From Gammaproteobacteria bacterium (GTDB lineage: Bacteria > Pseudomonadota > Gammaproteobacteria > Natronospirales > JAIVGZ01), in assembly GCA_040882865.1 (NCBI GenBank), contig JBBEAN010000008.1, forward strand, positions 556,437 through 620,436: 64,000 nt of DNA, read 5' to 3'. The notes below the pieces were generated by a model that was given only the letters and a program-made list of their open reading frames with translations, searched no databases and was not told the origin of the DNA. A program made the position numbers and the translations under genes. This document shows, piece by piece, positions 2,995 to 63,242 of this stretch (position 1 is the stretch's first letter; the number at the start of each line of letters is the position of its first letter).

Positions 2995-3079
2995 AGACCA
3001 GAAACGGGAAACCAAGAAGCAACCAAAGATGACCTTGCAGGAAAAGCGCGTCGCAAAACGCGAGAAAAAAGGGAAGTAA
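2981..3079 (+). CDS. candidate small lysine-rich protein (32 aa)
   Basis: Below the ORF-track size cut-off. ATG 2981 is preceded by AGGAGGGGAG (2966-2975). Translation MAKSKDQKRETKKQPKMTLQEKRVAKREKKGK, stop TAA 3077-3079. Overlaps the DoxX 3' end by 14 nt. Confidence 0.35.
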   Translation: MAKSKDQKRETKKQPKMTLQEKRVAKREKKGK

Positions 3080-10665: not shown

Positions 10666-11556
10666 ATGCATCTGACAAAAGCACTGGCAGCACTGAGCGC
10701 CGGGTCGCTTCTGTTGATCGGGCACTCGACACTCGCCTACGCACAGGATGATCCGTATACGGACGACACACGCGACGAGCAGTCGACCGAAACCACCACG
10801 CAGGACGACACTTGGTCGAGCGACACCGAGACCACAGCCGATGCCGACGTGGACATGCAGGATGATTCCGATGTCGAGTCCGACTCGACGATGGACACGT
10901 ATGCCCAGAACGAGGATGACGAGTACAGCGCCGAAGTGGATGTCGACTCGAGTTCCGAGTCGGATTCCGACGTGTACGCGCGTACCGAAGATGACGAGTT
11001 CCGTGCCGACGTAGACGTCGATGCGGAAAGCGACACCTATGCTGCGACCCGGGACGACGATGAGTTCCGTGCCGACGTAGACGTCGATGCGGATGCCGAC
11101 AGCGACACCAGCTCGTCGACCTACGCGCAGACCGAAGACGATGGCTTTGACGCCAGCGCCGACGTGAACGCGGATGTCGACAGCAGCGCTTCGCCGGACC
11201 TGCAGGAGCAGGTCGCCCAGATTGACGTCGAAGTGGACGTCGACGCGGCGAAGATCGAGGAGCTCGCGCAGATCCACGTGGAAATGCAGAAAGAGACCCG
11301 CGATCTTGCCGACCAGATGTCGGGCGCCGGTTCGACTGCAGACGCGCAGGAACTTCAGGCGCAGATGGTCGACCGCCAGGTCGAGGTGATTGAACGCCAC
11401 GGTTGGACCCGCGATGAGTACAACGCGGTCGTCGACACCGTGAACGAGAATCCCGACCTCCGCGCGCAGTTCATCGAAAATGTGGTGAACAGCGATACCG
11501 CGGTCGCGCAGACTGAGTCGGAAGACCCGGCTGCCGAGGAAGACACCGACTGGTAA
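10666..11556 (+). CDS. secreted, highly acidic repeat protein with C-terminal DUF4168-like domain
   Basis: GGAGG RBS and signal peptide MHLTKALAALSAGSLLLIGHSTLAYA. About 190 aa are dominated by D/E/T/S with repeated Y-A-x-T-E-D-D-E-F-R-A-D-V-D-V-D-A units. The C-terminus (ELAQIHVEMQKE...WTRDEYNAVVDTVNENPDLRAQF) resembles DUF4168. Confidence 0.7.
   Translation: MHLTKALAALSAGSLLLIGHSTLAYAQDDPYTDDTRDEQSTETTTQDDTWSSDTETTADADVDMQDDSDVESDSTMDTYAQNEDDEYSAEVDVDSSSESDSDVYARTEDDEFRADVDVDAESDTYAATRDDDEFRADVDVDADADSDTSSSTYAQTEDDGFDASADVNADVDSSASPDLQEQVAQIDVEVDVDAAKIEELAQIHVEMQKETRDLADQMSGAGSTADAQELQAQMVDRQVEVIERHGWTRDEYNAVVDTVNENPDLRAQFIENVVNSDTAVAQTESEDPAAEEDTDW
10996..11093 (+). repeat. intragenic tandem duplication (66-nt period) in the acidic protein gene
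   Basis: The 32-nt string GAGTTCCGTGCCGACGTAGACGTCGATGCGGA occurs identically at 10996-11027 and 11062-11093. Confidence 0.85.
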
Positions 11557-21881: not shown

Positions 21882-22349
21882 TTAGAGTGGAAGCGCCAGC
21901 ACGATGGCGTCTTCGCGCTGGCCGCGAGCCGCCGGGTAATAGTTGTTCCGCAAACCGACCTCGACGAACCCGGCGACGCGATACAGATGCAGTGCCGCGT
22001 CGTTCGATGGGCGTACCTCGAGGAACAGGGCCTTGGCGCGGTGGCTCCGCGCCAGCTCAAACACGTGGTCGAGCATCATCCGGCCCAGGCCCGTGCGCTG
22101 CCGCGCCGGTGCCACGCACAGGTTGAGCAGATGTGCCTCACCTGCGCCGACTGACATCACCACATAGCCGGCGACACCGTCGTCGGCCTCGGCGATCCAG
22201 CAGCAGTATCCGATGCGTAGGCAGTCGCGGAAGATTCCCGCGGTCCACGGGTAGGGATAAGCCGCGCGCTCGACTTCCATGACCGCGTCGATGTCGCTGG
22301 TGCGCATCGGCCGCAGTTGCACGGGTGCCGGCTCGCGTTGCGCACTCAT
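21882..22349 (-). CDS. rimI: ribosomal-protein-alanine N-acetyltransferase
   Basis: GNAT core (RQRTGLGRMML) and RimI-like N-terminus (MRTSDIDAVMEVERAAYPYPW). Start ATG 22349 forms an ATGA overlap with the upstream stop. The longer track ORF is an over-extension. Confidence 0.8.
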   Translation of the reverse strand: MSAQREPAPVQLRPMRTSDIDAVMEVERAAYPYPWTAGIFRDCLRIGYCCWIAEADDGVAGYVVMSVGAGEAHLLNLCVAPARQRTGLGRMMLDHVFELARSHRAKALFLEVRPSNDAALHLYRVAGFVEVGLRNNYYPAARGQREDAIVLALPL

Positions 22350-23098
22350 GCGACGGGCTCCGCGACGCTCAGCGCGAGCTTGAGGTCGTCCCACGCGCGG
22401 CGCTTCTGTCCCGGTGATCGCAGCAGGTACGCCGGGTGATACGTTGCGACAAGCGGTGTTTCTCGCGTGCCATACCGATGCACGGTGCCGCGCAGTTTGC
22501 CGATTGGCTGGTCGCTTGCGAGCAGCGTCTGCGCGGCGATGCGGCCCACGACGAGAATGAGTTCGGGTTCCACGAGCGCGATTTGGCGATCCAGGAATGC
22601 ACGGCACGCCGTGAGCTCATCAGACTTCGGGTCGCGGTTGTCGGGCGGCCGGCACTTGAGCGTGTTCGCGATGTACACGCGCTCACGCGGCGCGCCCGCG
22701 GCCGCGAGCATCGCATTGAGGAGTTGCCCGGCGCGACCGACGAACGGCTCGCCTTGGCGATCCTCCTCCGCGCCCGGCGCCTCACCCACAAGCATCCAAC
22801 GCGCGTTGCGATCGCCCGTGCCGAATACGGTTTGCGTGCGGCTTCGGTGGAGGTCGCAGGCGGTGCAGGTGGAGACGGTTTGCTGGAGGGTGTCCCAATC
22901 GAGGGTCGAGGCATCGGCGAGTTCGCGGCGCGAAGGCGCCGCTCCAACAGGGGCTGGTGGTGACTCGGGCACATCGCGGCGCAAAGGCGCCGCTCCTACA
23001 GGTGTCGACTCCGGTAATGGCGCCGCTCCTACAATCGGTGGCCTGACATAGAGCTGAACACCGAGGGCGTCGAGGTAGTGGCGGCGCCGCGCGTCCAC
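22346..23098 (-). CDS. uracil-DNA glycosylase, family 4, with REP-derived N-terminal linker
   Basis: Motif A GEAPGAEED, motif B HPAYLLR, Cys cluster (CTACDL...), N-terminal YLDALGVQLY motif. GTG start. Confidence 0.85.
   Translation of the reverse strand: MDARRRHYLDALGVQLYVRPPIVGAAPLPESTPVGAAPLRRDVPESPPAPVGAAPSRRELADASTLDWDTLQQTVSTCTACDLHRSRTQTVFGTGDRNARWMLVGEAPGAEEDRQGEPFVGRAGQLLNAMLAAAGAPRERVYIANTLKCRPPDNRDPKSDELTACRAFLDRQIALVEPELILVVGRIAAQTLLASDQPIGKLRGTVHRYGTRETPLVATYHPAYLLRSPGQKRRAWDDLKLALSVAEPVA
22922..23036 (+). repeat. REP elements x2.5 (orientation A), in frame inside the UDG gene
   Basis: 22922-22953 TTCGCGGCGCGAAGGCGCCGCTCCAACAGGGG. 22973-23004 ATCGCGGCGCAAAGGCGCCGCTCCTACAGGTG. 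Half copy at 23019-23036 GGCGCCGCTCCTACAATC. The 51-nt period equals 17 codons. Confidence 0.9.
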
Positions 23099-33097: not shown

Positions 33098-33104
33098 GTC
33101 GATC

Positions 33105-33133
33105 ATCGCGACGCCAAGAGCGTCGCTCCCACA
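33105..33133 (+). repeat. REP element, orientation A, stem variant GCGACGC/GCGTCGC
   Basis: ATCGCGACGCCAAGAGCGTCGCTCCCACA. Ends directly at ATG 33134 of the next gene. Confidence 0.9.
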
Positions 33134-35832: not shown

Positions 35833-36859
35833 GCCCGTTCGTACACCGCTTACCTATCGTGACGCTGGCGTCGACATCGACGCGGGAGATGCACTGGTCG
35901 AGCGGATAAAGGACGCCGCGGCCCGCACCCGCCGGCCGGGTGTGCTCGCCGGGCTCGGCGGATTCGGTGCGCTATTCGAACTGCCCACTGGTTATGAGCG
36001 ACCGGTGCTCGTCTCCGGCACGGACGGCGTCGGCACGAAGTTGAAGCTCGCGATTCAGTGCGGCAAGCACGATACGATTGGCCAGGATCTCGTCGCGATG
36101 TGCGCGAACGACATCGTGGTAGTCGGCGCGGAACCGCTGTTCTTCCTCGACTACTACGCGAGTGGCAAGCTCGACGTCGACACGGCCGCAGAAATCGTGG
36201 GCGGGATCGCCACAGGCTGCGAGCTCGCAGGCTGTGCGCTCGTCGGCGGCGAGACAGCGGAGCTCCCCGGCATGTACCACGACGGCGATTACGACCTCGC
36301 TGGTTTCTGCGTCGGTATCGTCGAGAAGGCGCGCATCATCGATGGCGCGCGCGTCGCCGATGGTGATGCCGTTCTCGGCATTGCATCGTCGGGCCTTCAT
36401 TCAAACGGATATTCGCTTGCGCGCAAGATCGTCGAGGTTTCCGGCGCATCGCTCACCGAAGGTTTCGACGGCCGTCCACTCGGTGAGGTCCTGCTCGAGC
36501 CGACGCGCATCTACGTGAAAGCGCTGCTCGCGCTCACCGCATCCGTCGACGTGCACGCGCTCGCGCACATCACCGGCGGTGGCCTGCCCGGCAACCTGCC
36601 GCGCGTATTGCCCGACGGCGCCGGTGCGACAATCGATGCATCGGCGTGGCAGCGGCCGCGGATTTTCGACTGGCTGCAAGCCGAGGGTGCGGTCGTCGAC
36701 GACGAGATGTACCGCACGTTCAACTGCGGAATCGGCATGTGCGTGGTCGTGGCGGCGGCCGACGCCACGCGCGCAATCGAGGTCCTCGCGCAGCACGGCG
36801 AGCGAGCGAACGTTATCGGACGCATCTCAAACGACGTGGACGGCGTGGTCATCGACTGA
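35831..36859 (+). CDS. purM: phosphoribosylformylglycinamidine cyclo-ligase
   Basis: [21 protein letters not shown] and [12 protein letters not shown], full-length PurM. Start is ATG 35831 or 35825. Confidence 0.95.
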
Positions 36860-37518
36860 TGATGTCCGTCGCCGTTCTCGCGTCGGGCCGCGGCTCGAAT
36901 CTCCAAGCGCTCATCGACGCGGCTGCGCGACCGGGCAGCCAGTTCGCCATTCGGTGCGTGGTCTCGGACCGGGCAGATGCCGGCGCGCTCGCGCGCGCGC
37001 ACGCGGCAGGTATCCCTGCCCATTTCATCGACCCGGCCATACACGCCGACCGCGCATCGTTCGACGCCGCGCTCGACGCCGCGTTCGCCGGACACGACCT
37101 TACGGTCCTCGCGGGCTTCATGCGCGTTTTGGGTTCAGCGCTCGTTCAGAAGTGGGCGGGCAGGATGGTGAACGTCCACCCTTCCCTGCTGCCCAAATAC
37201 CGGGGCCTGAACACCCACCAACGTGCGCTGGACGCCAGCGACACTGAACATGGAGCGAGCGTGCATTTCGTGACCGAGACACTCGATAGTGGACCCGTGA
37301 TTCTGCAGGCGGTCATTCCGGTCAATGCGAGCGACGACGCAGCGACCCTCGCGGCGCGCGTGCAGGCCCAGGAGCACCGCATCTACCCGTTCGTCGTCGG
37401 CCTGTTCGCGCAAGGTCGCGTCGCACTCGTTGACGGAGTCGCGACACTCGACGGCAAGGCGCTGGCCATGCCACTGCGCGTCGACGCGGATACGGACCTC
37501 GAATGTATCGCGGCCTGA
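36859..37518 (+). CDS. purN: phosphoribosylglycinamide formyltransferase
   Basis: VLASGRGSNLQALIDAA, NVHPSLLPKYRGLNTHQRAL, GASVHFVT. ATG 36859 overlaps the purM stop. Confidence 0.9.
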   Translation: MMSVAVLASGRGSNLQALIDAAARPGSQFAIRCVVSDRADAGALARAHAAGIPAHFIDPAIHADRASFDAALDAAFAGHDLTVLAGFMRVLGSALVQKWAGRMVNVHPSLLPKYRGLNTHQRALDASDTEHGASVHFVTETLDSGPVILQAVIPVNASDDAATLAARVQAQEHRIYPFVVGLFAQGRVALVDGVATLDGKALAMPLRVDADTDLECIAA

Positions 37519-38246
37519 TTGTAGGAGCGGCGCTTGTGGGAGCGGCGCTCTACGCCGCGATGCCAACGCATGCAACTCCACGGGACGCCGGCCCGTCGCT
37601 CACGCCGTTCGAAGCGACCTACACCGTCACGCGCGGACATATTCGCCTCGGCGAGATGAGCGCGACGCTGCACGCGCCTGTCGACGGTGTGTGGCGCTAT
37701 CACTCGCATTCTGAGACGAGCGGCTTCGTGGCGATGTTCCGCCAGATCACGATCGACGAGCAGTCGACGTTCCGAATGGAGCAGGGCCGCCCCGTTCCAC
37801 TCGCGCACGAATATCGCATGGGCGGAAGCCGCAAGAATCGTGACTTCTCCTTGGCGTTCGACTGGGTCGCACGGGAAGTCCACGGCGTCGTTCGCGGCGA
37901 GACAGTCACTGAACCCCTGGGGCCCGGCGCGATTGACCGGCACTCGGCGCCGCTATCGGTCGCGCTCGCAGCGGCCGGCGGACGCGCGTTCCCGTTCGAT
38001 GTCGTGATGGTCGATCGCGGCCGCACGCGCGAGTACGAGACGGCGCATCGTGGCGAGGAAACACTGAAGACCGATGCCGGTGAGATCGCGACCGTACGCG
38101 TGCTGCTCGTACGTAAAGACGAACCCGATCGCCAGTTCCGGTTCTGGTTCGCGCCGGCGCTCGATCATGTGCCCGTGCGCATCCAGAGCGTGGATGACGA
38201 CGGCAAGACCATCACGCTGCAGTTGAAGTCCTACACCCGCAGCTAG
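37503..38246 (+). CDS. DUF3108 domain protein
   Basis: Conserved position after purN. The beta-rich body is DUF3108-like. The N-terminus MYRGLIVGAALVGAALYAAMPTHA is encoded by REP sequence. Confidence 0.65.
   Translation: MYRGLIVGAALVGAALYAAMPTHATPRDAGPSLTPFEATYTVTRGHIRLGEMSATLHAPVDGVWRYHSHSETSGFVAMFRQITIDEQSTFRMEQGRPVPLAHEYRMGGSRKNRDFSLAFDWVAREVHGVVRGETVTEPLGPGAIDRHSAPLSVALAAAGGRAFPFDVVMVDRGRTREYETAHRGEETLKTDAGEIATVRVLLVRKDEPDRQFRFWFAPALDHVPVRIQSVDDDGKTITLQLKSYTRS
37507..37561 (-). repeat. composite REP (head fragment plus 1.5 copies, orientation B) spanning the purN stop and the DUF3108 start
   Basis: ATCGCGGCCTGATTGTAGGAGCGGCGCTTGTGGGAGCGGCGCTCTACGCCGCGATG. Confidence 0.85.
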
Positions 38247-38249
38247 CTC

Positions 38250-38337
38250 ATTCGCGACGCCAAGAGCGTCGCTCCCACCTGAAGCTGCCGAACCTTCTGC
38301 AAGAACAGGTGGGAGCGACGCTCTTGGCGTCGCGATT
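38250..38337. repeat. REP doublet (REPIN-like), tail-to-tail, variant GCGACGC/GCGTCGC
   Basis: 38250-38281 ATTCGCGACGCCAAGAGCGTCGCTCCCACCTG. 38306-38337 CAGGTGGGAGCGACGCTCTTGGCGTCGCGATT. The arms match at 31/32 positions as reverse complements, with a 24-nt spacer. Lies between convergent genes. Confidence 0.9.
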
Positions 38338-38911: not shown

Positions 38912-38922
38912 CTATTCTCCCC

Positions 38923-38955
38923 AAATCGCGGCGCAAAGGCGCCGCTCCAACAGTG
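38923..38955 (+). repeat. REP element, orientation A
   Basis: AAATCGCGGCGCAAAGGCGCCGCTCCAACAGTG. Lies between the apbC stop (38956) and the dcd start (38911). Confidence 0.9.
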
Positions 38956-42709: not shown

Positions 42710-43249
42710 ATGCTGAGCGCAATCGTCGCCATCACCACACTCGCCGCCGTGTTCGGGCTGCTGCTCGGCTTTTCGGCCGTGCGCTTTCGCGTCGATGGCG
42801 ACCCGATCGCCGATCAGGTCGAGGCCCTGCTGCCGCAGACGCAGTGCGGGCAATGCACGTTCCCGGGATGTCGCCCGTATGCGGAAGCGATCGTGCGCGG
42901 CGAAGCCGACATCAATCAATGCCCGCCGGGCGGCGAGGCGACCATCCGCGCGCTCGCCGACTTGCTCGACCGCGAACCAAAGGCCTTGAATCCCGACAAC
43001 GGCGCCGAGAAGCCGCGCGTGCTGGCGCTGATCGACGAGCCGCGGTGCATCGGCTGCACGCTCTGCATCCAGGCGTGCCCCGTCGACGCGATCGTCGGCG
43101 CGCCGAAACAGATGCACACGGTCATCGCCGCCGAGTGCACCGGCTGCGAACTGTGCCTGCCGCCCTGCCCGGTCGACTGCATCGACCTGGTGCCCGCCGA
43201 CGACGGAATCGCTGCGTGGCGGTGGCCGGAGCCCGACCATGGTGCATGA
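42710..43249 (+). CDS. rnfB: electron transport complex subunit RnfB/RsxB
   Basis: N-terminal TM helix, [10 protein letters not shown] cluster, and two 4Fe-4S ferredoxin motifs ([24 protein letters not shown]). Confidence 0.9.
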
Positions 43250-43256
43250 GCCGGGA

Positions 43257-43290
43257 AAATCGCGGCGCAAAGGCGCCGCTCCAACAGGTG
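43257..43290 (+). repeat. REP element, orientation A, intra-operon (rnfB-rnfC spacer)
   Basis: AAATCGCGGCGCAAAGGCGCCGCTCCAACAGGTG. Confidence 0.9.
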
Positions 43291-43295
43291 CCAGG

Positions 43296-44786
43296 ATGCA
43301 CGGCGGGTTGAAGCTTGAGCCGCACAAAGCCGAGTCAACGCGCGAGCCGATTCTGCGCGGCCCGCGTCCGAGCGAGCTCGTACTGCCGCTCGCACAGCAC
43401 ATGGGCGCCGCGGCGAAGGCGCGTGTCGCGGTCGGTGACCACGTCGCGCGCGGCCAGCCGCTTGCCGACGCCGACGGTTACCTGAGCGCGCCAGTGCATG
43501 CCCCTGCCTCAGGCACCGTTGTAGCCATCGAGCCGCGCCGCATCGCGCATCCGTCAGGCCTCGCGACGCCCTGCATCGTGCTCGAGACCGACGCCGCCGA
43601 CCATGACTGGGACGGCCTGCACGCGCACCCACAATGGCGCGACCTCACCCCCGAGCAGGTGCGAACGCTCGTGCGCGATGCCGGCATCGTCGGCCTCGGC
43701 GGCGCCGCGTTTCCGACCCACGTGAAACTCAATCCCGCGCTGACCGTCGACACGCTCGTCCTCAACGGCGCGGAGTGCGAGCCGTACATCAGCTGCGACG
43801 ACCGGCTGATGCGCGAGCGCGCGGCGCAGGTCGTCGCGGGTGCGGAGATCCTGCTGCACGCGCTGCAGGCAAAGCGGTGCGTGATCGCGATTGAGGAAGA
43901 CAAGCCAGAAGCGATCGCGGCCATCAAAACAGGAATCGCGGCGCAAAGGCGCCGCTCCAACACCAGCGACTTCGACCTGGCTTTGGAGGTGGTGCCTGCG
44001 ATTTACCCTCAGGGCGGCGAGCGGCAGTTGATTGCCACGGTGACGGGACGGCGGGTCCCGAGCGGCGGCTTACCGCTGAACGTCGGCGTCGTCTGCCACA
44101 ACGTCGCGACCGCGGCCGCGGTCGCCGCAGCGGTGCTGGACGGCGAGCCGCTCACGCGGCGCGTTGTCACCATGACCGGCGACGCGATGGCAGCACCGCG
44201 CAATGTCGACGCGCTGTACGGCACGCCCGTCTCAGCGCTCATCGCCGCGTGCGGTGGCTACGACGCGCCGGTGGACCGACTTGTAATGGGCGGTCCGATG
44301 ATGGGCTTCGCGCTGCCCGGCGACGACGTACCCGTCGTGAAGGCGATGAATTGCATCTTGGCGGAGTCCGATGCGATCGCGGCGCAAAGGCGCCGCTCCG
44401 TCAAACAGGTTCAGCCCTGCATTCGGTGTACGGCGTGTGAAGACGCGTGCCCGGCCGAGCTCCTGCCGCAGCAGCTGCACTGGTTCGCGCGCGCGCGGGA
44501 TTTCGACCAGGCCCGCGATCACGCGCTGTTCGATTGCATCGAATGCGGCGTCTGCGACGCCGTGTGTCCGAGCGACATACCGCTCGCCGCGCAGTTTCGC
44601 TGGGCGAAGGCAGAGATCCGCGCGCGCGATGACGAACGCAGTCGCGCCGAGCTCGCGAAACACCGCTTCGAGGCGCGCGCGCAGCGCCTCGCTGACGAGA
44701 AGCGCGAGCGCGAAGAACGCTTGAAGAAGAAACAGGACCCCGCCGCCATCGAAGCAGCGCTCGCACGCGTGAAGGCGAGCCGATGA
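43296..44786 (+). CDS. rnfC: electron transport complex subunit RnfC/RsxC
   Basis: GLGGAAFPTHVKL, NGAECEPYISCDDRLM, and two 4Fe-4S motifs (CIRCTACEDACP, CIECGVCDAVCP). ATG 43296 is preferred. The GTG at 43239 would read through the REP. Confidence 0.9.
   Translation: MHGGLKLEPHKAESTREPILRGPRPSELVLPLAQHMGAAAKARVAVGDHVARGQPLADADGYLSAPVHAPASGTVVAIEPRRIAHPSGLATPCIVLETDAADHDWDGLHAHPQWRDLTPEQVRTLVRDAGIVGLGGAAFPTHVKLNPALTVDTLVLNGAECEPYISCDDRLMRERAAQVVAGAEILLHALQAKRCVIAIEEDKPEAIAAIKTGIAAQRRRSNTSDFDLALEVVPAIYPQGGERQLIATVTGRRVPSGGLPLNVGVVCHNVATAAAVAAAVLDGEPLTRRVVTMTGDAMAAPRNVDALYGTPVSALIAACGGYDAPVDRLVMGGPMMGFALPGDDVPVVKAMNCILAESDAIAAQRRRSVKQVQPCIRCTACEDACPAELLPQQLHWFARARDFDQARDHALFDCIECGVCDAVCPSDIPLAAQFRWAKAEIRARDDERSRAELAKHRFEARAQRLADEKREREERLKKKQDPAAIEAALARVKASR
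43933..43964 (+). repeat. REP element, orientation A, in frame inside rnfC
   Basis: GAATCGCGGCGCAAAGGCGCCGCTCCAACACC, translated as (G)IAAQRRRSNT. Confidence 0.9.
44375..44410 (+). repeat. REP element, orientation A, in frame inside rnfC
   Basis: GATCGCGGCGCAAAGGCGCCGCTCCGTCAAACAGGT, translated as AIAAQRRRSVKQV. Confidence 0.9.
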
Positions 44787-48025: not shown

Positions 48026-48361
48026 ATGACGAAGTCCCGTAACTACACGCTGGCGCTCGCCGTCGGCACCGCCCTGGCCGCCGCGCCCGCAGCGGCCGCC
48101 GCCAACCCGTTCGGCCTCTCCGACCTCGGCGCCGGTTACATGCTCGGCGCGGCAGCAGCGGGCGACCCGGCGCCGGCAGCGAAAGACGCCGAAGGCAAAT
48201 GCGGCGAGGACAAGGCCAAGAAGGACGCCGAGGGCAAGTGCGGTGAAGGCAAGTGCGGTGAGGACAAGGACAAGGCCGAGGCGAAGGATGGCGAGGGCAA
48301 GTGCGGTGAGGAGAAAGACAAGGCCAAGACGAAAGATGGCGAGGGTAAGTGCGGGGCCTGA
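48026..48361 (+). CDS. secreted Cys-repeat RiPP precursor (five EGKCG motifs; HvfA/oxazolin-like metallophore precursor)
   Basis: Signal peptide MTKSRNYTLALAVGTALAAAPAAAAA. After it comes NPFGLSDLGAGYML, then a K/E/D-rich tail with EGKCG x5 (Cys codons at 48200, 48239, 48254, 48302, 48350), ending EGKCGA-stop. Directly followed by DUF692 and DUF2063 genes. Confidence 0.8.
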   Translation: MTKSRNYTLALAVGTALAAAPAAAAANPFGLSDLGAGYMLGAAAAGDPAPAAKDAEGKCGEDKAKKDAEGKCGEGKCGEDKDKAEAKDGEGKCGEEKDKAKTKDGEGKCGA

Positions 48362-54620: not shown

Positions 54621-56375
54621 TCACAAATCCGTCAGCGTCCCCGCGAACGCTTCCGCCGAGAAGGCCACCGTCTCCGACAGCGTCGGGTGGGGGTGGATCA
54701 CAAGGCCGATGTCGTGCGCATCCGCGCCCATCTCGATCGCGAGCACCGCTTCTGAAATGAGATCGCCCGCGTTCGGGCCGACGATGCCCGCGCCGATCAC
54801 GCGTCCGGTCTTTTCATCGAACAGCAACTTGCTGAACCCGTCCTGCGCGTCGAGCGCGAGCGCACGACCGCTCGCCGCCCACGGGAAGCGGCCCTTGCCG
54901 ACCTTGATGCCTTTCTGTTTGGCTTCGGTCTCGGTCATGCCGCACCACGCGACCTCCGGGTCGGTATATGCGACCGACGGAATCACGCGCGCGTCGAACG
55001 CCGATTTTTGGCCGGCGGTGACTTCCGCCGCGACTTTCGCTTCGTGCGTCGCCTTGTGCGCGAGCATCGGATTGCCGGCGACGTCGCCGATCGCGAAGAT
55101 GTTCGGCTGGTTCGTGCGCATCTGTTCGTCCACGGGGATGAAGCCGCGGTCGTCGACCGTGACGCCAGCCGCGTCCGCGCCAAGGCCGCGCCCGTTCGGC
55201 TTGCGTCCGATGGCAACGAGTACACGGTCGAAGGTCTGAGATTCCGGCGCGTCCTTGCCGTCGAACGACACCGCGATGCCGCCTTTTTTCGCCTCGAGTT
55301 TCGCGACTTTCGTCGAGAGCCAGATGGCTTCGCACTTCGACTCGAGGCGCTTCTGGAGCACCTTCACGAGGTCGCGGTCGGTTCCCGGCATCAGTCCATC
55401 GGAAAGCTCCACGACACTGACTTTCGTACCCAGCGCCGCGTACACCGTCGCCATTTCGAGCCCGATGATGCCGCCGCCGACCACGAGCAGGCTCGCCGGC
55501 ACATCCTCGAGCGCGAGCGCGCCGGTGGAGTCGATGATGCGCGGGTCTTCGGGCGCACCCGGGAGCTTCACGACGGACGAACCGGCCGCGATGATCGCGT
55601 GCTCGAAATGGATGAGTTCGTTCTTGTCGCCCTCGACCGCGAGGTGATTCGCGTCCTTGAAGCGGCCGACGCCGGTCACGACCGATACCTTGCGTTTTTT
55701 CGCGAGCGCCTTGAGCCCGCCCGTGAGCTGACCGACCACGCCGTCCTTGAACCCGCGCAGCTTTTCGAGGTCGAGCTTCGGCTCACCGAATGAAACGCCG
55801 TGCGTGCCGAGCGTCTCGACTTCCGCCATCACGCGCGCGACGTGCAGCAATGCTTTCGACGGGATGCAGCCCACGTTCAGGCATACGCCGCCGAGCGTCG
55901 GGTAGCGCTCGACCAATATGACTTTCTTGCCGAGGTCGGCTGCGCGGAACGCCGCGGTATAGCCGCCGGGGCCGGCGCCGAGGACCAGCACATCGCACGC
56001 CAACGTGGTGTCCTTACGGGTGGGAGCGGCGCTCTGCGCCGCGATTGGCTCGGATTTCTCCGGCGCCGGTTTTTCCTCGCGGCGCGAAGGCGCCGCTCCT
56101 GCATCCAGGTCACCTGTAGGAGCGGCACCTTCGTGCCGCGATCCGTCAGAAGCTTCGAGCTCGGCAATCTCGCTGCCCTGCGACACCTTGTCGCCGGCCT
56201 TGACCAGGAGCTTCGTGACTTTACCGGCGTGGGTCGATGGCACGTCCATCGCAGCCTTGTCGGTCTCGATGGTGATCAGGCCCTGCTCGGCCTCGACCGA
56301 TTCGCCTTCGGCGACCAGCACCTCGATGACCTCGACGTCCGAGAAATTCCCGATGTCGGGAACGAGAATTTTCAT
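54621..56375 (-). CDS. lpdA: dihydrolipoyl dehydrogenase (E3) with N-terminal lipoyl domain
   Basis: Lipoyl domain (ITIETDKAAMDVPS), FAD site LVLGAGPGGY, redox disulfide CLNVGCIPSK, and HPHPTLSE. 584 aa. Confidence 0.9.
   Translation of the reverse strand: MKILVPDIGNFSDVEVIEVLVAEGESVEAEQGLITIETDKAAMDVPSTHAGKVTKLLVKAGDKVSQGSEIAELEASDGSRHEGAAPTGDLDAGAAPSRREEKPAPEKSEPIAAQSAAPTRKDTTLACDVLVLGAGPGGYTAAFRAADLGKKVILVERYPTLGGVCLNVGCIPSKALLHVARVMAEVETLGTHGVSFGEPKLDLEKLRGFKDGVVGQLTGGLKALAKKRKVSVVTGVGRFKDANHLAVEGDKNELIHFEHAIIAAGSSVVKLPGAPEDPRIIDSTGALALEDVPASLLVVGGGIIGLEMATVYAALGTKVSVVELSDGLMPGTDRDLVKVLQKRLESKCEAIWLSTKVAKLEAKKGGIAVSFDGKDAPESQTFDRVLVAIGRKPNGRGLGADAAGVTVDDRGFIPVDEQMRTNQPNIFAIGDVAGNPMLAHKATHEAKVAAEVTAGQKSAFDARVIPSVAYTDPEVAWCGMTETEAKQKGIKVGKGRFPWAASGRALALDAQDGFSKLLFDEKTGRVIGAGIVGPNAGDLISEAVLAIEMGADAHDIGLVIHPHPTLSETVAFSAEAFAGTLTDL
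56016..56046 (-). repeat. REP element, orientation B, 3-nt loop, in frame inside lpdA
   Basis: ACGGGTGGGAGCGGCGCTCTGCGCCGCGATT. Sense-strand translation IAAQSAAPTR. Confidence 0.9.
56075..56144. repeat. REP doublet (tail-to-tail, no spacer) in frame inside lpdA
   Basis: 56075-56110 CCTCGCGGCGCGAAGGCGCCGCTCCTGCATCCAGGT (orientation A). 56111-56144 CACCTGTAGGAGCGGCACCTTCGTGCCGCGATCC (orientation B, stem variant GCGGCAC/GTGCCGC). Sense-strand translation GSRHEGAAPTGDLDAGAAPSRRE. Confidence 0.9.
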
Positions 56376-56454: not shown

Positions 56455-57735
56455 TCATAGCACCAACCCTTCGACGTCGTGCAAGACTTTCGCCAAGTGC
56501 GTCGTGAACCGCGCAGCGGCCGCGCCGTCGATCACGCGATGGTCGTACGACAGCGACAGCGGCAGCATGAGCCGCGGCTTGAAGTCGTCGCCGTCCCACA
56601 CGGGCTTCATCTGCGACTTCGACACGCCGAGGATCGCGACTTCGGGCGCGTTCACGATCGGCGTGAACGCGGTGCCGCCGATACCGCCGAGGCTCGACAC
56701 CGAGAAGGTACCGCCCTGCATGTCCTTCGCTTTGAGTTTCTTGTCGCGCGCCTTGCCGCTGATCTCGCCGAGTTCCTTCGCGATGTCGAAGACGTTCTTC
56801 TTGTCCGCGTCGCGGATGACCGGTACGACGAGACCCTCGGGGGTGTCGACCGCGAAGCCGATGTGGAAGTACTGCTTCACGATGAGCTGGTCACCGTCGA
56901 GCGACGAATTGAAGCGCGGGAATTCCTTCAGCGTCAGCGCACACGCCTTGATGATGAACGCGAGCGGCGTGAGCTTCGCGCCGAGCTTCTCCGCGTCGGC
57001 CTTCAGCGACTGGCGCACCGTTTCCATATCGGTGATGTCCGCTTCGTCGTGCTGCGTGACGTGCGGAATCGTCGCCCACGCGCGCTGCAGGTGCGGCCCG
57101 GCGATTTTCTGGATGCGCGTGAGCAGCTCGGCCTCGACCGGCCCCCACTGCGAGAAATCGATGCGCGGCGCGGGCTCGAACGACGGGCCGCCCATACCGC
57201 CGCCCTGCATCACGCCCTTCACGAACGCTTTCACGTCGTCGTGGGTGATACGGCCTTTTTTTGCGCTGCCGTTGACGCGCGTGAGGTCGACGCCGAGTTC
57301 GCGCGCAAGTTTGCGGACCGATGGTGACGCGTGGGGTGGCGTGCCGTCAGCGCGGCGGCTGGGCGCCGGTTCCTGTTCGCGGTGCGAAGGCGCCGCTCCT
57401 ACAGGTGGCTCCGAAGGCGCGCCTTTTTCTTCGCGGCGCGAAGGTGCAGGTTCCTTTTCGCGGCGCGAAGGCGCCGCTCCTACATCTTGCTTCTCGGTGG
57501 CTTCGATCTCCGCGATCGGCGTGCCTTCGGAGACCTTGTCGCCGGCCTTCACGAGCAGCTTCGTGATCTTGCCCGCGTGCGTCGACGGCACGTCCATCGC
57601 GGCCTTGTCGGTTTCGATGGTGATGAGGCCGTCCTCGACCGCGACGGTGTCGCCCTCGGCGACCATGACTTCGATGACTTCGACGCCCTCGAAGTTACCG
57701 ATATCGGGGACCTTGATCTGGACCGTGTCAGACAT
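56455..57735 (-). CDS. aceF: dihydrolipoamide acetyltransferase (E2), single lipoyl domain
   Basis: Lipoyl domain (ITIETDKAAMDVPS), E3-binding domain (SPSVRKLARELGVDLTRVNGSAKKGRI), and catalytic SLSYDHRVIDGA. Confidence 0.9.
   Translation of the reverse strand: MSDTVQIKVPDIGNFEGVEVIEVMVAEGDTVAVEDGLITIETDKAAMDVPSTHAGKITKLLVKAGDKVSEGTPIAEIEATEKQDVGAAPSRREKEPAPSRREEKGAPSEPPVGAAPSHREQEPAPSRRADGTPPHASPSVRKLARELGVDLTRVNGSAKKGRITHDDVKAFVKGVMQGGGMGGPSFEPAPRIDFSQWGPVEAELLTRIQKIAGPHLQRAWATIPHVTQHDEADITDMETVRQSLKADAEKLGAKLTPLAFIIKACALTLKEFPRFNSSLDGDQLIVKQYFHIGFAVDTPEGLVVPVIRDADKKNVFDIAKELGEISGKARDKKLKAKDMQGGTFSVSSLGGIGGTAFTPIVNAPEVAILGVSKSQMKPVWDGDDFKPRLMLPLSLSYDHRVIDGAAAARFTTHLAKVLHDVEGLVL
57345..57486 (+). 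repeat. four to five REP-derived units (orientation A), in frame inside aceF
   Basis: 57375-57408 GTTCGCGGTGCGAAGGCGCCGCTCCTACAGGTGG. 57429-57450 CTTCGCGGCGCGAAGGTGCAGG. 57456-57486 TTTCGCGGCGCGAAGGCGCCGCTCCTACATC. A degenerate unit lies at 57345-57373. Confidence 0.85.
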
Positions 57736-62187: not shown

Positions 62188-62198
62188 AGGGGCTTATA

Positions 62199-63242
62199 AT
62201 GCCCGCGATGGATTCTCTGACGATCACCCGACCGGACGACTGGCACCTGCACCTGCGCGACGGCGCTGCGATGGCGTCGATCCTGCCGCACAGCGCCGCG
62301 CAGTTCGCGCGCGCAATCGTGATGCCCAACCTCAAACCGCCCGTCACGACCGTTGCGCTGGCGCGCGCGTACCGCGACCGTATTCTCGCGGCGCGGCCGA
62401 ACGGCTCGACGTTCGAGCCCCTGATGACGCTGTACCTGACCGACAACACCCGCGCGACCGAAATTCTCGCGGCGAAGGACAGCGGGTTCGTACACGCGGT
62501 GAAACTCTACCCCGCCGGCGCGACCACGAACTCTGACGCAGGCGTCACCGATCTCGACAAGGCCATGCCTGCGCTCGAAGCCATGGCCGAGTGCGGCCTG
62601 CCGCTACTTGTTCACGGCGAGGTCACCGACCCGGGTATCGACCCGTTCGATCGCGAGGCCGTCTTCCTCGAGCGTGTGCTCGCACCGCTCGTCGCGCGCC
62701 TACCGACTTTGAAAATCGTGCTCGAACACGCGACGACACAGGAGGCCGTCGACTTCGTGCGCGACGCGCCTTCGACCGTCGCCGCGACGATCACCGCGCA
62801 CCATTTACTGCACGACCGCGCCGACCTGTTCCGCGGCGGGCTCCGTCCGCATTATTTCTGCCTTCCCGTGCTGAAACGCGCGCACCACCGCGAGGCGCTC
62901 ATCGCCGCAGCGACCGCAGGCGACTCGAAATTTTTCCTCGGCACCGACAGTGCACCGCACGCGCGTGCGGACAAAGAAAGTGATTGCGGCTGCGCAGGTA
63001 TCTACACCGCGCACGCGGCGCTCGAACTCTACGCGGAGGTCTTCGACACCGCAGGACGTCTCGATCATCTCGAGGGTTTTGCGTCGCACTACGGGGCGGA
63101 CTTCTACGGTCTGCCCCGCAATGAAGGGACCGTTACGCTCGCGCGCGATGCATGGACGGTACCGGCGAATTACGCACTCGGCGACGGCACGGTCGTGCCG
63201 CTACGGGCGAACGAGAATATCCTCTGGCGACTCACTGCTTAA
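62199..63242 (+). CDS. pyrC: dihydroorotase (homodimeric class II type)
   Basis: [39 protein letters not shown]. Start is ATG 62199 or 62208. Confidence 0.95.

Follow-up and report, generated by a model that had tools for sequence, protein, structure and literature searches.

GTAG-tagged repetitive extragenic palindromic sequences (REPs) have been defined, and in-frame intragenic copies of them have been found in several species (Di Nocera, De Gregorio & Rocco 2013, BMC Genomics 14:522, PMC3733652). For example, the GTAG-1 REP inside the recB gene of X. campestris encodes VGAALAA (supplementary table of PMC3733652). In that study no REP was described as the core of a signal peptide, and REPs at the N-termini of open reading frames (ORFs) were taken mostly as annotation errors. 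Here we analyzed a stretch of 64,000 nucleotides from an uncultured gammaproteobacterium (assembly GCA_040882865.1, contig JBBEAN010000008.1, positions 556,437 to 620,436; hereafter the window), in which a REP lies at the junction between purN and a gene encoding a DUF3108 protein. Like the published GTAG REPs, those of the window are short GC-rich palindromes with GTAG at one end, present in many copies, some of which are in frame, and the recB peptide VGAALAA is essentially the same as the peptide encoded at the junction. In contrast to the earlier study, comparative data here favor translation of the N-terminal copy. It is likely that the junction REP is read in frame within a Sec signal-peptide segment and serves as the hydrophobic region (h-region) of a pre-existing signal. 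In a limited literature search, no description of a REP as signal-peptide core was found. The locus adds to the known GTAG REPs that lie in frame within genes, and its position is unusual and instructive.

Two other systems are close to this locus. The classic in-frame palindromic insertions are the Rickettsia palindromic elements (RPEs; Ogata et al. 2000, cited in PMC3733652). Like the junction REP, RPEs are in-frame palindromic repeats at tolerated positions, and some orthologues lack the insert. RPEs have no sequence relationship to the REP, are AT-rich and, at about 100-150 bp, larger; they add surface segments to mature proteins, whereas the peptide in the window lies in a presumably cleaved presequence. 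The junction REP is translated in frame; it is present in the window and in the orthologous loci L001, L004, L006, L007 and L008, and none is recognizable in L002, L005 and L009. It works like an RPE and stands outside the RPE sequence families. The REP/REPIN-RAYT systems of Pseudomonas, Stenotrophomonas and E. coli (PMC2817692, PMC3116915, PMC8266576) have elements built like those of the window, in which a stem-loop follows a GT[AG]G head, and they likewise show inverted pairs and clusters. Classical REPs lie outside genes and function at the RNA or DNA level, whereas the junction copy lies in frame inside the DUF3108 ORF. No RAYT (REP-associated tyrosine transposase; Y1 transposase, PF01797) was found among the 18 window ORFs scanned with Pfam, which included ORFs beside REP clusters. 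The ORF at 62190-63242, flanked by inverted REPs, was considered as a transposase and rejected; it is an amidohydrolase.

The purN gene, encoding phosphoribosylglycinamide formyltransferase, is located at 36859-37518 of the forward strand (Pfam Formyl_trans_N, E 7e-51), and its product ends in ...DTDLECIAA. Its last bases (37495-37518) read ...GAC CTC GAA TGT ATC GCG GCC TGA, of which ATC GCG GCC TGA occupies 37507-37518 and the stop codon TGA 37516-37518. The DUF3108 gene (37503-38246, forward strand, 247 aa; Pfam PF11306, E 3.7e-24) opens at ATG 37503 in the +1 frame, overlapping the end of purN by 16 nt, and its first 26 residues are MYRGLIVGAALVGAALYAAMPTHATP. Of these features, the I-A-A-stop end of purN, the +1-frame ATG and the N-terminal residues had been described correctly in a first-pass annotation of the sequence. 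The DUF3108 match covers residues 39-239 and scores 86.1 bits, above the Pfam gathering cut-off of 26. An identical 247-aa product has been called by NCBI (P0001) in a metagenome-assembled genome labelled Gammaproteobacteria bacterium. For this protein, no solved structure was detected by sequence and there was no NCBIfam match. The junction, together with the whole gene, was reproduced base for base in two independent Logan assemblies and is therefore not an assembly artefact. Around the purN/DUF3108 junction there was no promoter-like or terminator-like site, and with the latter absent we dropped the idea that the REP is a terminator between the two genes.

The REP begins 2 nt after the TGA of purN. 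Its first part is a left-arm unit with the GTAG head (37520-37534, forward strand; TGTAGGAGCGGCGCT) that encodes VGAAL. It is followed by a full REP of the short-loop variant (37535-37561, forward strand; TGTGGGAGCGGCGCTCTACGCCGCGAT) with a 6-bp stem and a 5-nt loop, which is read (L)VGAALYAAM. Tandem Repeats Finder resolves this 1.5-copy structure as a 15-nt tandem array of 2.1 units at 37519-37549, in which the left-arm unit is the first. The GTAG head is in the half copy (37521-37524); the full copy has GTGG, a variant common to about nine other copies of the window. The full REP is identical at 25 of 26 positions to the copies at 56020 and 62162, with one loop base different. Its hairpin has a predicted energy of -11.7 kcal/mol, and other copies have stems of 7-8 bp and energies of -13.8 to -14.9 kcal/mol. 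With one mismatch allowed, the REP motif GTRGGAGCGRCGCT had 19 matches in the window against 0.19 expected, that is, it was about 100 times commoner than expected, and 19 was not reached in any of 100 shuffles. About 26 hairpin-bearing copies were counted in the 64 kb by repeat finding and a scan that takes hairpins into account. They fall into three main variants, GTAGGAGCGGCGCCTTTGCGCCGCGAT, GTGGGAGCGACGCTCTTGGCGTCGCGAT and the short-loop GTGGGAGCGGCGCTCTGCGCCGCGAT, and occur in both orientations, with inverted pairs at 38251-38336 and 56077-56142.

The first-pass annotation had let a composite REP overlap the purN stop, which is wrong for the window. The 8-mer ATCGCGGC (37508-37515, forward strand) is formed by the purN codons I-A-A, is complementary to the REP 3' end GCCGCGAT and lies outside the REP; it occurs 32 times in the window, and it is found in L002 and, nearly unchanged, in L005. 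The upstream sequence ATCGCGGCC is present also in L002 (ATGCATCGCGGCCTGATT), in which no REP is recognizable. Thus, ATCGCGGCC is purN coding sequence. A composite REP including ATCGCGGCC was rejected, because the match is only 8 nt, no second arm follows it, and the same bases are found in L002. In the predicted fold of 37495-37580 (86 nt), 37508-37515 pairs with 37554-37561 (-37.5 kcal/mol, z -2.15). It is in a sister lineage (L003 3010-3140 and L011 229-300) that another REP, GTAGGAGCGGTGCTACGCACCGCGA in L011 and ATAGGAG... in L003, supplies the purN stop. This stop is the TAG of the REP (GTAGGAG), and the same REP encodes the n-region RVGAVLR.

A protein search gave 12 family members, and junction DNA was obtained from 10 orthologues besides the window. 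The comparison thus comprises 11 orthologous junctions; the genome collection added only two further loci. Neither a protein pattern nor an exact REP-plus-flank DNA pattern had a match in the metagenome contigs scanned. The purM-purN-DUF3108 synteny is kept in all orthologues where the contig allows, and an ATG or GTG is found at the same purN-overlapping position in all 11 junctions. In the orthologues without a recognizable REP, an ordinary signal peptide begins at the purN-overlapping codon and there is no internal Met: the N-terminus is MHRGLILVTALLLAAPPAFA before ELRPYEATY in L002, MRRLTVALMLLVSTSSALA before QIAPFEATY in L009/L010, and MHRRLILIAALLAA... in L005. Because L002 and L009 have canonical signal peptides from the upstream codon and no internal Met, the start of the gene is fixed there.

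The remaining junctions differ in the number of REPs. One REP is found in L004, L006, L007 and L008, read VGAAL[C/Y]AAM, with VGVALCAAM in the partly decayed L004. There are 1.5 units in the window and 2.5 in L001 (VGAAF-VGAAL-VGAALCAAM; 3.3 copies of 15 nt by Tandem Repeats Finder), and two or three REPs in L011 and L003. Whether the REP number is none recognizable, 1, 1.5, 2, 2.5 or 3, the frame is kept from the upstream start to the mature domain, and the length differences among the variants are 15, 15 and 54 nt. The short-loop variant is read in frame 0 as VGAAL[C/Y]AAM, which in the window copy is the only uncharged forward frame. In L003 and L011 the variant has 2 nt more in its loop, and frame 2 is used, giving GSGALGAAM. 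Each variant thus uses its sole forward frame without a charged residue or a stop. Substitutions inside the REP are hydrophobic or synonymous (VGVAL in L004, AAF in L001, CTT in L008). The cleavage motif aligns across orthologues, P-T-H-A of the window corresponding to P-A-Y-A or P-A-F-A of relatives, and precedes the conserved PFEATY by 5-12 residues. DUF3108 translation most likely starts at ATG 37503. Two further features of these junctions were observed. L003 carries a 54-nt in-frame duplication with a second full REP, so that GSGALGAAM occurs twice, and in L005 (about 3005-3030) a REP head GTGGGAGCGGCGCC lies just after the signal peptide and is read PQDVGAAPSL; the corresponding residues of relatives are PRDAGPSL or PPDAGPTL.

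In the frame of ATG 37503, the REP is translated as IVGAALVGAALYAAM, a part of MYRGLIVGAALVGAALYAAMPTHA, after which TP follows. The inferred signal-peptide segment (residues 1-24; 37503-37574, forward strand) is composed of the n-region MYR, the h-region GLIVGAALVGAALYAAM and the c-region PTHA, with predicted cleavage after A24. By heuristic, it has the properties of a signal peptide: R3, an uncharged stretch G4-A24, P21 and T22-H23-A24. Its best 10-residue Kyte-Doolittle window is 2.51, inside the family range of about 2.0-3.6. Like Sec (signal peptidase I) signal peptides it is tripartite: residue 3 is positive, the uncharged core spans 17 residues, Pro occupies -4, and the residues at -3 and -1 are small. 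It differs from the usual ones in that its h-region, whose function is deduced from sequence, is a repeat-derived pentapeptide array, (VGAAL)2. The first-pass annotation had taken THA as an AxA-like site, and it aligns with AYA or AFA of the orthologues.

The DUF3108 family is normally exported, as had also been proposed. From 1.8 billion representatives, a profile search retrieved 4,057 matches, of which the best 150 were examined. By a strict heuristic (K or R near the N-terminus and a 10-residue Kyte-Doolittle mean of at least 1.8), 130 of these 150 have a signal peptide, and most of the other 20 are signal-peptide-like or truncated. A REP-like peptide was found in none of the 150. DUF3108 proteins have been described as outer-membrane beta-barrels with the YmcC fold (PMC4364669). 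In the AlphaFold model of the window protein (pLDDT 83.6), residues 1-30 are unstructured and the barrel starts from residue 36. By Foldseek, the barrel resembles envelope proteins: it matches the DUF1849 beta-barrel-like protein 6ntr (E 4e-9, TM 0.61) and, more weakly, RseB, LolA, LprG and the YmcC-like exported protein 3fzx. Most likely, the REP supplies the h-region of a Sec-type signal peptide, by which the protein would be exported and from which it would be cleaved.

We propose the following mechanism. A short-loop REP, whose left arm is duplicated once as a 15-nt unit, probably replaced or extended part of an older h-region. Translation from ATG 37503, coupled to the overlapping end of purN, would continue through the REP, which reads VGAAL-VGAALYAAM and, being uncharged and hydrophobic, would form the h-region between MYR and PTHA. 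Signal peptidase I probably cleaves after Ala24, so that REP-encoded residues would never be present in the mature beta-barrel protein. Since an h-region accepts almost any uncharged hydrophobic sequence, an in-frame REP would be tolerated in this disposable segment. We infer both the arrival of the REP and the upkeep of its uniformity.

Several points weigh against this proposal. Di Nocera et al. (PMC3733652) caution that, for most REPs annotated in the N-terminal part of an ORF, the true start codon lies downstream of the repeat. Ahead of ATG 37503, only GGA is present as a weak Shine-Dalgarno sequence, and initiation there would have to rely on coupling to purN. An in-frame ATG at the REP 3' end is found in every orthologue with an intact REP and leaves room for downstream initiation. 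The n-region MxRxL is constrained also by the overlapping C-terminus of PurN and is hence weak evidence for translation by itself. The signal-peptide assignment of the window protein rests on crude hydropathy and a -3/-1 test, and T at -3 is acceptable to signal peptidase I, not optimal.

At the level of the family, the signal peptide is clearly older than the REP. The nearest out-group representatives, such as P0017 (MHRRLTVALAFAASLTAPHA), have a signal peptide at this place in which no REP-like peptide occurs. Signal peptides without a REP-like peptide in L002, L005, L009 and the 150 distant representatives indicate that the signal came first and the REP infiltrated it later. The first-pass annotation had suggested that the element was co-opted as an export signal. 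That the 1.5 REP copies are most likely read from ATG 37503 as the hydrophobic core is supported; that the REP created the signal is not, since orthologues and relatives without it have signal peptides. Within the clade, either state could be the ancestral one, because L002 keeps REP-like arms (ACGGCGC...GCGCCGC) and L002, L005 and L009 each have a close REP-bearing relative. L002 may carry a decayed REP.

The distribution of the REP does not follow the tree of the mature domain. L004, with a REP, and L002, with none, share 87% amino acid identity, as do L007 and L005, and the value for L008 and L009 is 84%. Of the 9 REP codons, the third position is invariant in 7 when six REP-bearing genes are compared, against 23% of the mature-region codons (binomial P = 7e-4), and in 8 when five are compared, against 29%. 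Over about 140 nt that contain the REP, the N-terminal DNA of L006 is almost the same as that of L007, and third-position identity elsewhere in the gene is 0.73. The N-terminus of L008 resembles those of L006 and L007, and its mature domain groups with L009. This pattern suggests recombination of N-terminal alleles or chimeric short contigs. The patchy REP and the conserved third positions could come from allele recombination, homogenization by other REPs, or constraint at the RNA or DNA level.

The most probable alternative is that the REP, besides being translated, is kept for a nucleic-acid role, for example as an mRNA hairpin directly behind the purN stop that tunes purN-DUF3108 translational coupling or mRNA stability, or as a DNA site kept uniform by REP-specific machinery or gene conversion. 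The invariant third positions and the patchy distribution fit such a role. The hairpin is retained, and a longer predicted structure pairs the last purN codons with the REP 3' end. However, recent recombination of N-terminal alleles, to which the near-identity of L006 and L007 may point, would give the same conservation, and L002, L005 and L009 manage without a recognizable REP. The fold z-scores are modest, and the junction lacks terminator-like and promoter-like sites. We regard a nucleic-acid role as rather unlikely.

A second alternative is that the REP is extragenic, in a 5'-untranslated or intercistronic region, and that the 247-aa call is an N-terminal over-extension, with translation beginning at the in-frame ATG at the REP 3' end (37560-37562, forward strand; MPTHATPRD...). 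The presence of this ATG wherever the REP is intact and the statement of Di Nocera et al. that N-terminal REPs are mostly mis-annotated favor it. REP frames are also largely stop-free, so an open frame alone proves little. But the product would have no signal peptide, although such a peptide is nearly universal in the family. L002, L005 and L009 lack the corresponding Met and begin at the purN-overlapping codon. The length variants are all multiples of 3, and the REP is always in its uncharged frame. In addition, no Shine-Dalgarno sequence lies 5-10 nt before this ATG, which adjoins the 3' arm of a GC-rich hairpin. An extragenic REP is therefore improbable, and the earlier preference for 37503 over 37560 is favored by the start codon kept in 11 of 11 junctions and by the lack of an internal Met in orthologues without a REP.

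The ATG at 37560 had been regarded as the sole alternative start, but GTG 37536 (37536-37538, forward strand) is also in frame. It lies 8 nt downstream of AGGAG in the REP half-copy (37523-37527), which could act as its Shine-Dalgarno sequence, and AGGAG, an 8-nt spacer and GTG make a near-ideal initiation context. The protein would then begin MGAALYAAMPTHA.... Yet AGGAG is present in every GTAGGAG-type REP and is unspecific, and the single-REP orthologues L004, L006, L007 and L008 lack the pair of Shine-Dalgarno sequence and GTG. The resulting N-terminus would lack a positive n-region, and with only some 8 hydrophobic residues it would not be long enough for a Sec signal. A start at 37536 (MGAALYAAM...) would cripple the signal, as one at 37560 would remove it, and we consider it highly improbable. 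Finally, the idea that the resemblance to a REP is a coincidence of GC-rich Gly, Ala and Leu codons in an ordinary signal peptide, to which the GGCGCTC...GCCGCG shared by the REP and the signal-peptide DNA of L002 might point, is effectively refuted by the near-identity to two other window copies including the head and both arms, the excess of the motif and the conserved synonymous sites.

The junction REP is one of many in the window that lie in genes; besides DUF3108, at least four genes carry copies of the family in frame. About 11 of the roughly 26 copies or half-copies are in frame inside ORFs, and such a share, about 40% in 64 kb, looks high for REPs. In the RnfC gene (43239-44786, forward strand), two reverse-orientation REPs (43934-43963 and 44375-44404) encode GIAAQRRRSNT and AIAAQRRRSVK, which are 8-aa and 5-aa loop insertions relative to the solved RnfC of A. 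vinelandii (8ahx_C). A third REP of this gene (43258-43287) is at or just upstream of the true start. In the E2 component of pyruvate dehydrogenase (PDH; 56455-57735, reverse strand), REPs at 57377-57404 (VGAAPSHRE) and 57458-57485 (VGAAPSRRE) lie in the linker that connects the lipoyl domain with the E3-binding domain. This linker has further APSRRE motifs that resemble right-half REPs, so that much of it would be REP-derived. The RnfC and PDH REPs cannot be start-codon artefacts, and REP is thus translated in this organism.

The PDH lipoyl-E3 gene (54621-56375, reverse strand) has REPs at 56019-56045, 56077-56104 and 56114-56142 that encode GSRHEGAAPTG, DAGAAPSRRE and IAAQSAAPT. Together these copies, in both orientations and two frames, account for most of residues 78-119, the linker that joins the N-terminal lipoyl domain (3-73) to the FAD domain (from 128). 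A 212-nt direct repeat of 80% identity (56152-56363 and 57500-57711) corresponds to the lipoyl-domain coding parts of E3 and E2; the two lipoyl domains are therefore close paralogues. In the family-4 uracil-DNA glycosylase gene (22346-23098, reverse strand), 2.5 REPs at 22920-23034 would encode IVGAAPL, PVGAAPLRRD and PVGAAPSRRE in an N-terminal extension. The glycosylase domain starts from about residue 78; because the position of the start codon is uncertain, translation may not extend over these copies.

Other copies are intergenic. The DUF3108 and dcd genes are convergent, and the gap between their stops is occupied by the inverted, REPIN-like pair at 38251-38336, whose 41-nt arms are 88% complementary and 2 nt apart; independent short-read assemblies break inside it. 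Single REPs fill the whole intergenic gaps 33098-33133 and 38912-38955. The REP at 33105-33133 adjoins the ATG of a DUF2069 membrane-protein gene, and that at 38924-38953 lies between the stop of an apbC-like gene and the Shine-Dalgarno sequence GGGGAG of dcd. The window also contains low-complexity tandem repeats of coding type that are unrelated to the REP: a Lys/Glu/Gly/Cys-rich one at 48174-48323 (...GKCGE...) and acidic units of 66-81 nt at 10912-11182.

A broader possibility, which we hold only tentatively and think doubtful, is that the REP family is adapted to coding sequence. Its frames would be stop-free, its copies would settle in disposable or flexible segments, and REP-specific conversion or mobilization would keep them uniform even across species with saturated synonymous sites. 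Slippage by 15 nt would change the length of the signal peptide, giving 1, 2 or 3 VGAAL units in different lineages, and the in-frame ATG that ends the REP could even give rise to an exported isoform and a cytoplasmic one. Under such adaptation, VGAAL[C/Y]AAM and GSGALGAAM may be signal-like frames and VGAAPSRRE and IAAQRRRS linker-like ones, with the signal peptide, the PDH linkers and the RnfC loops as their sites.

In conclusion, the junction REP indicates that a selfish or structural repeat can persist harmlessly in a gene segment that needs only hydrophobicity and is probably cut off. It is a counter-example to the usual advice that a REP at the 5' end of an ORF means a mis-called start, and gene callers or curators that trim N-termini at repeats would in this case wrongly delete the signal peptide. 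With 1, 2 and 3 VGAAL units occurring naturally, a ready-made series exists for testing the effect of h-region length on export. Judging by the density of translated REPs, the lineage of this uncultured gammaproteobacterium may be comparable, in its intragenic repeats, with Rickettsia or Opitutus terrae.

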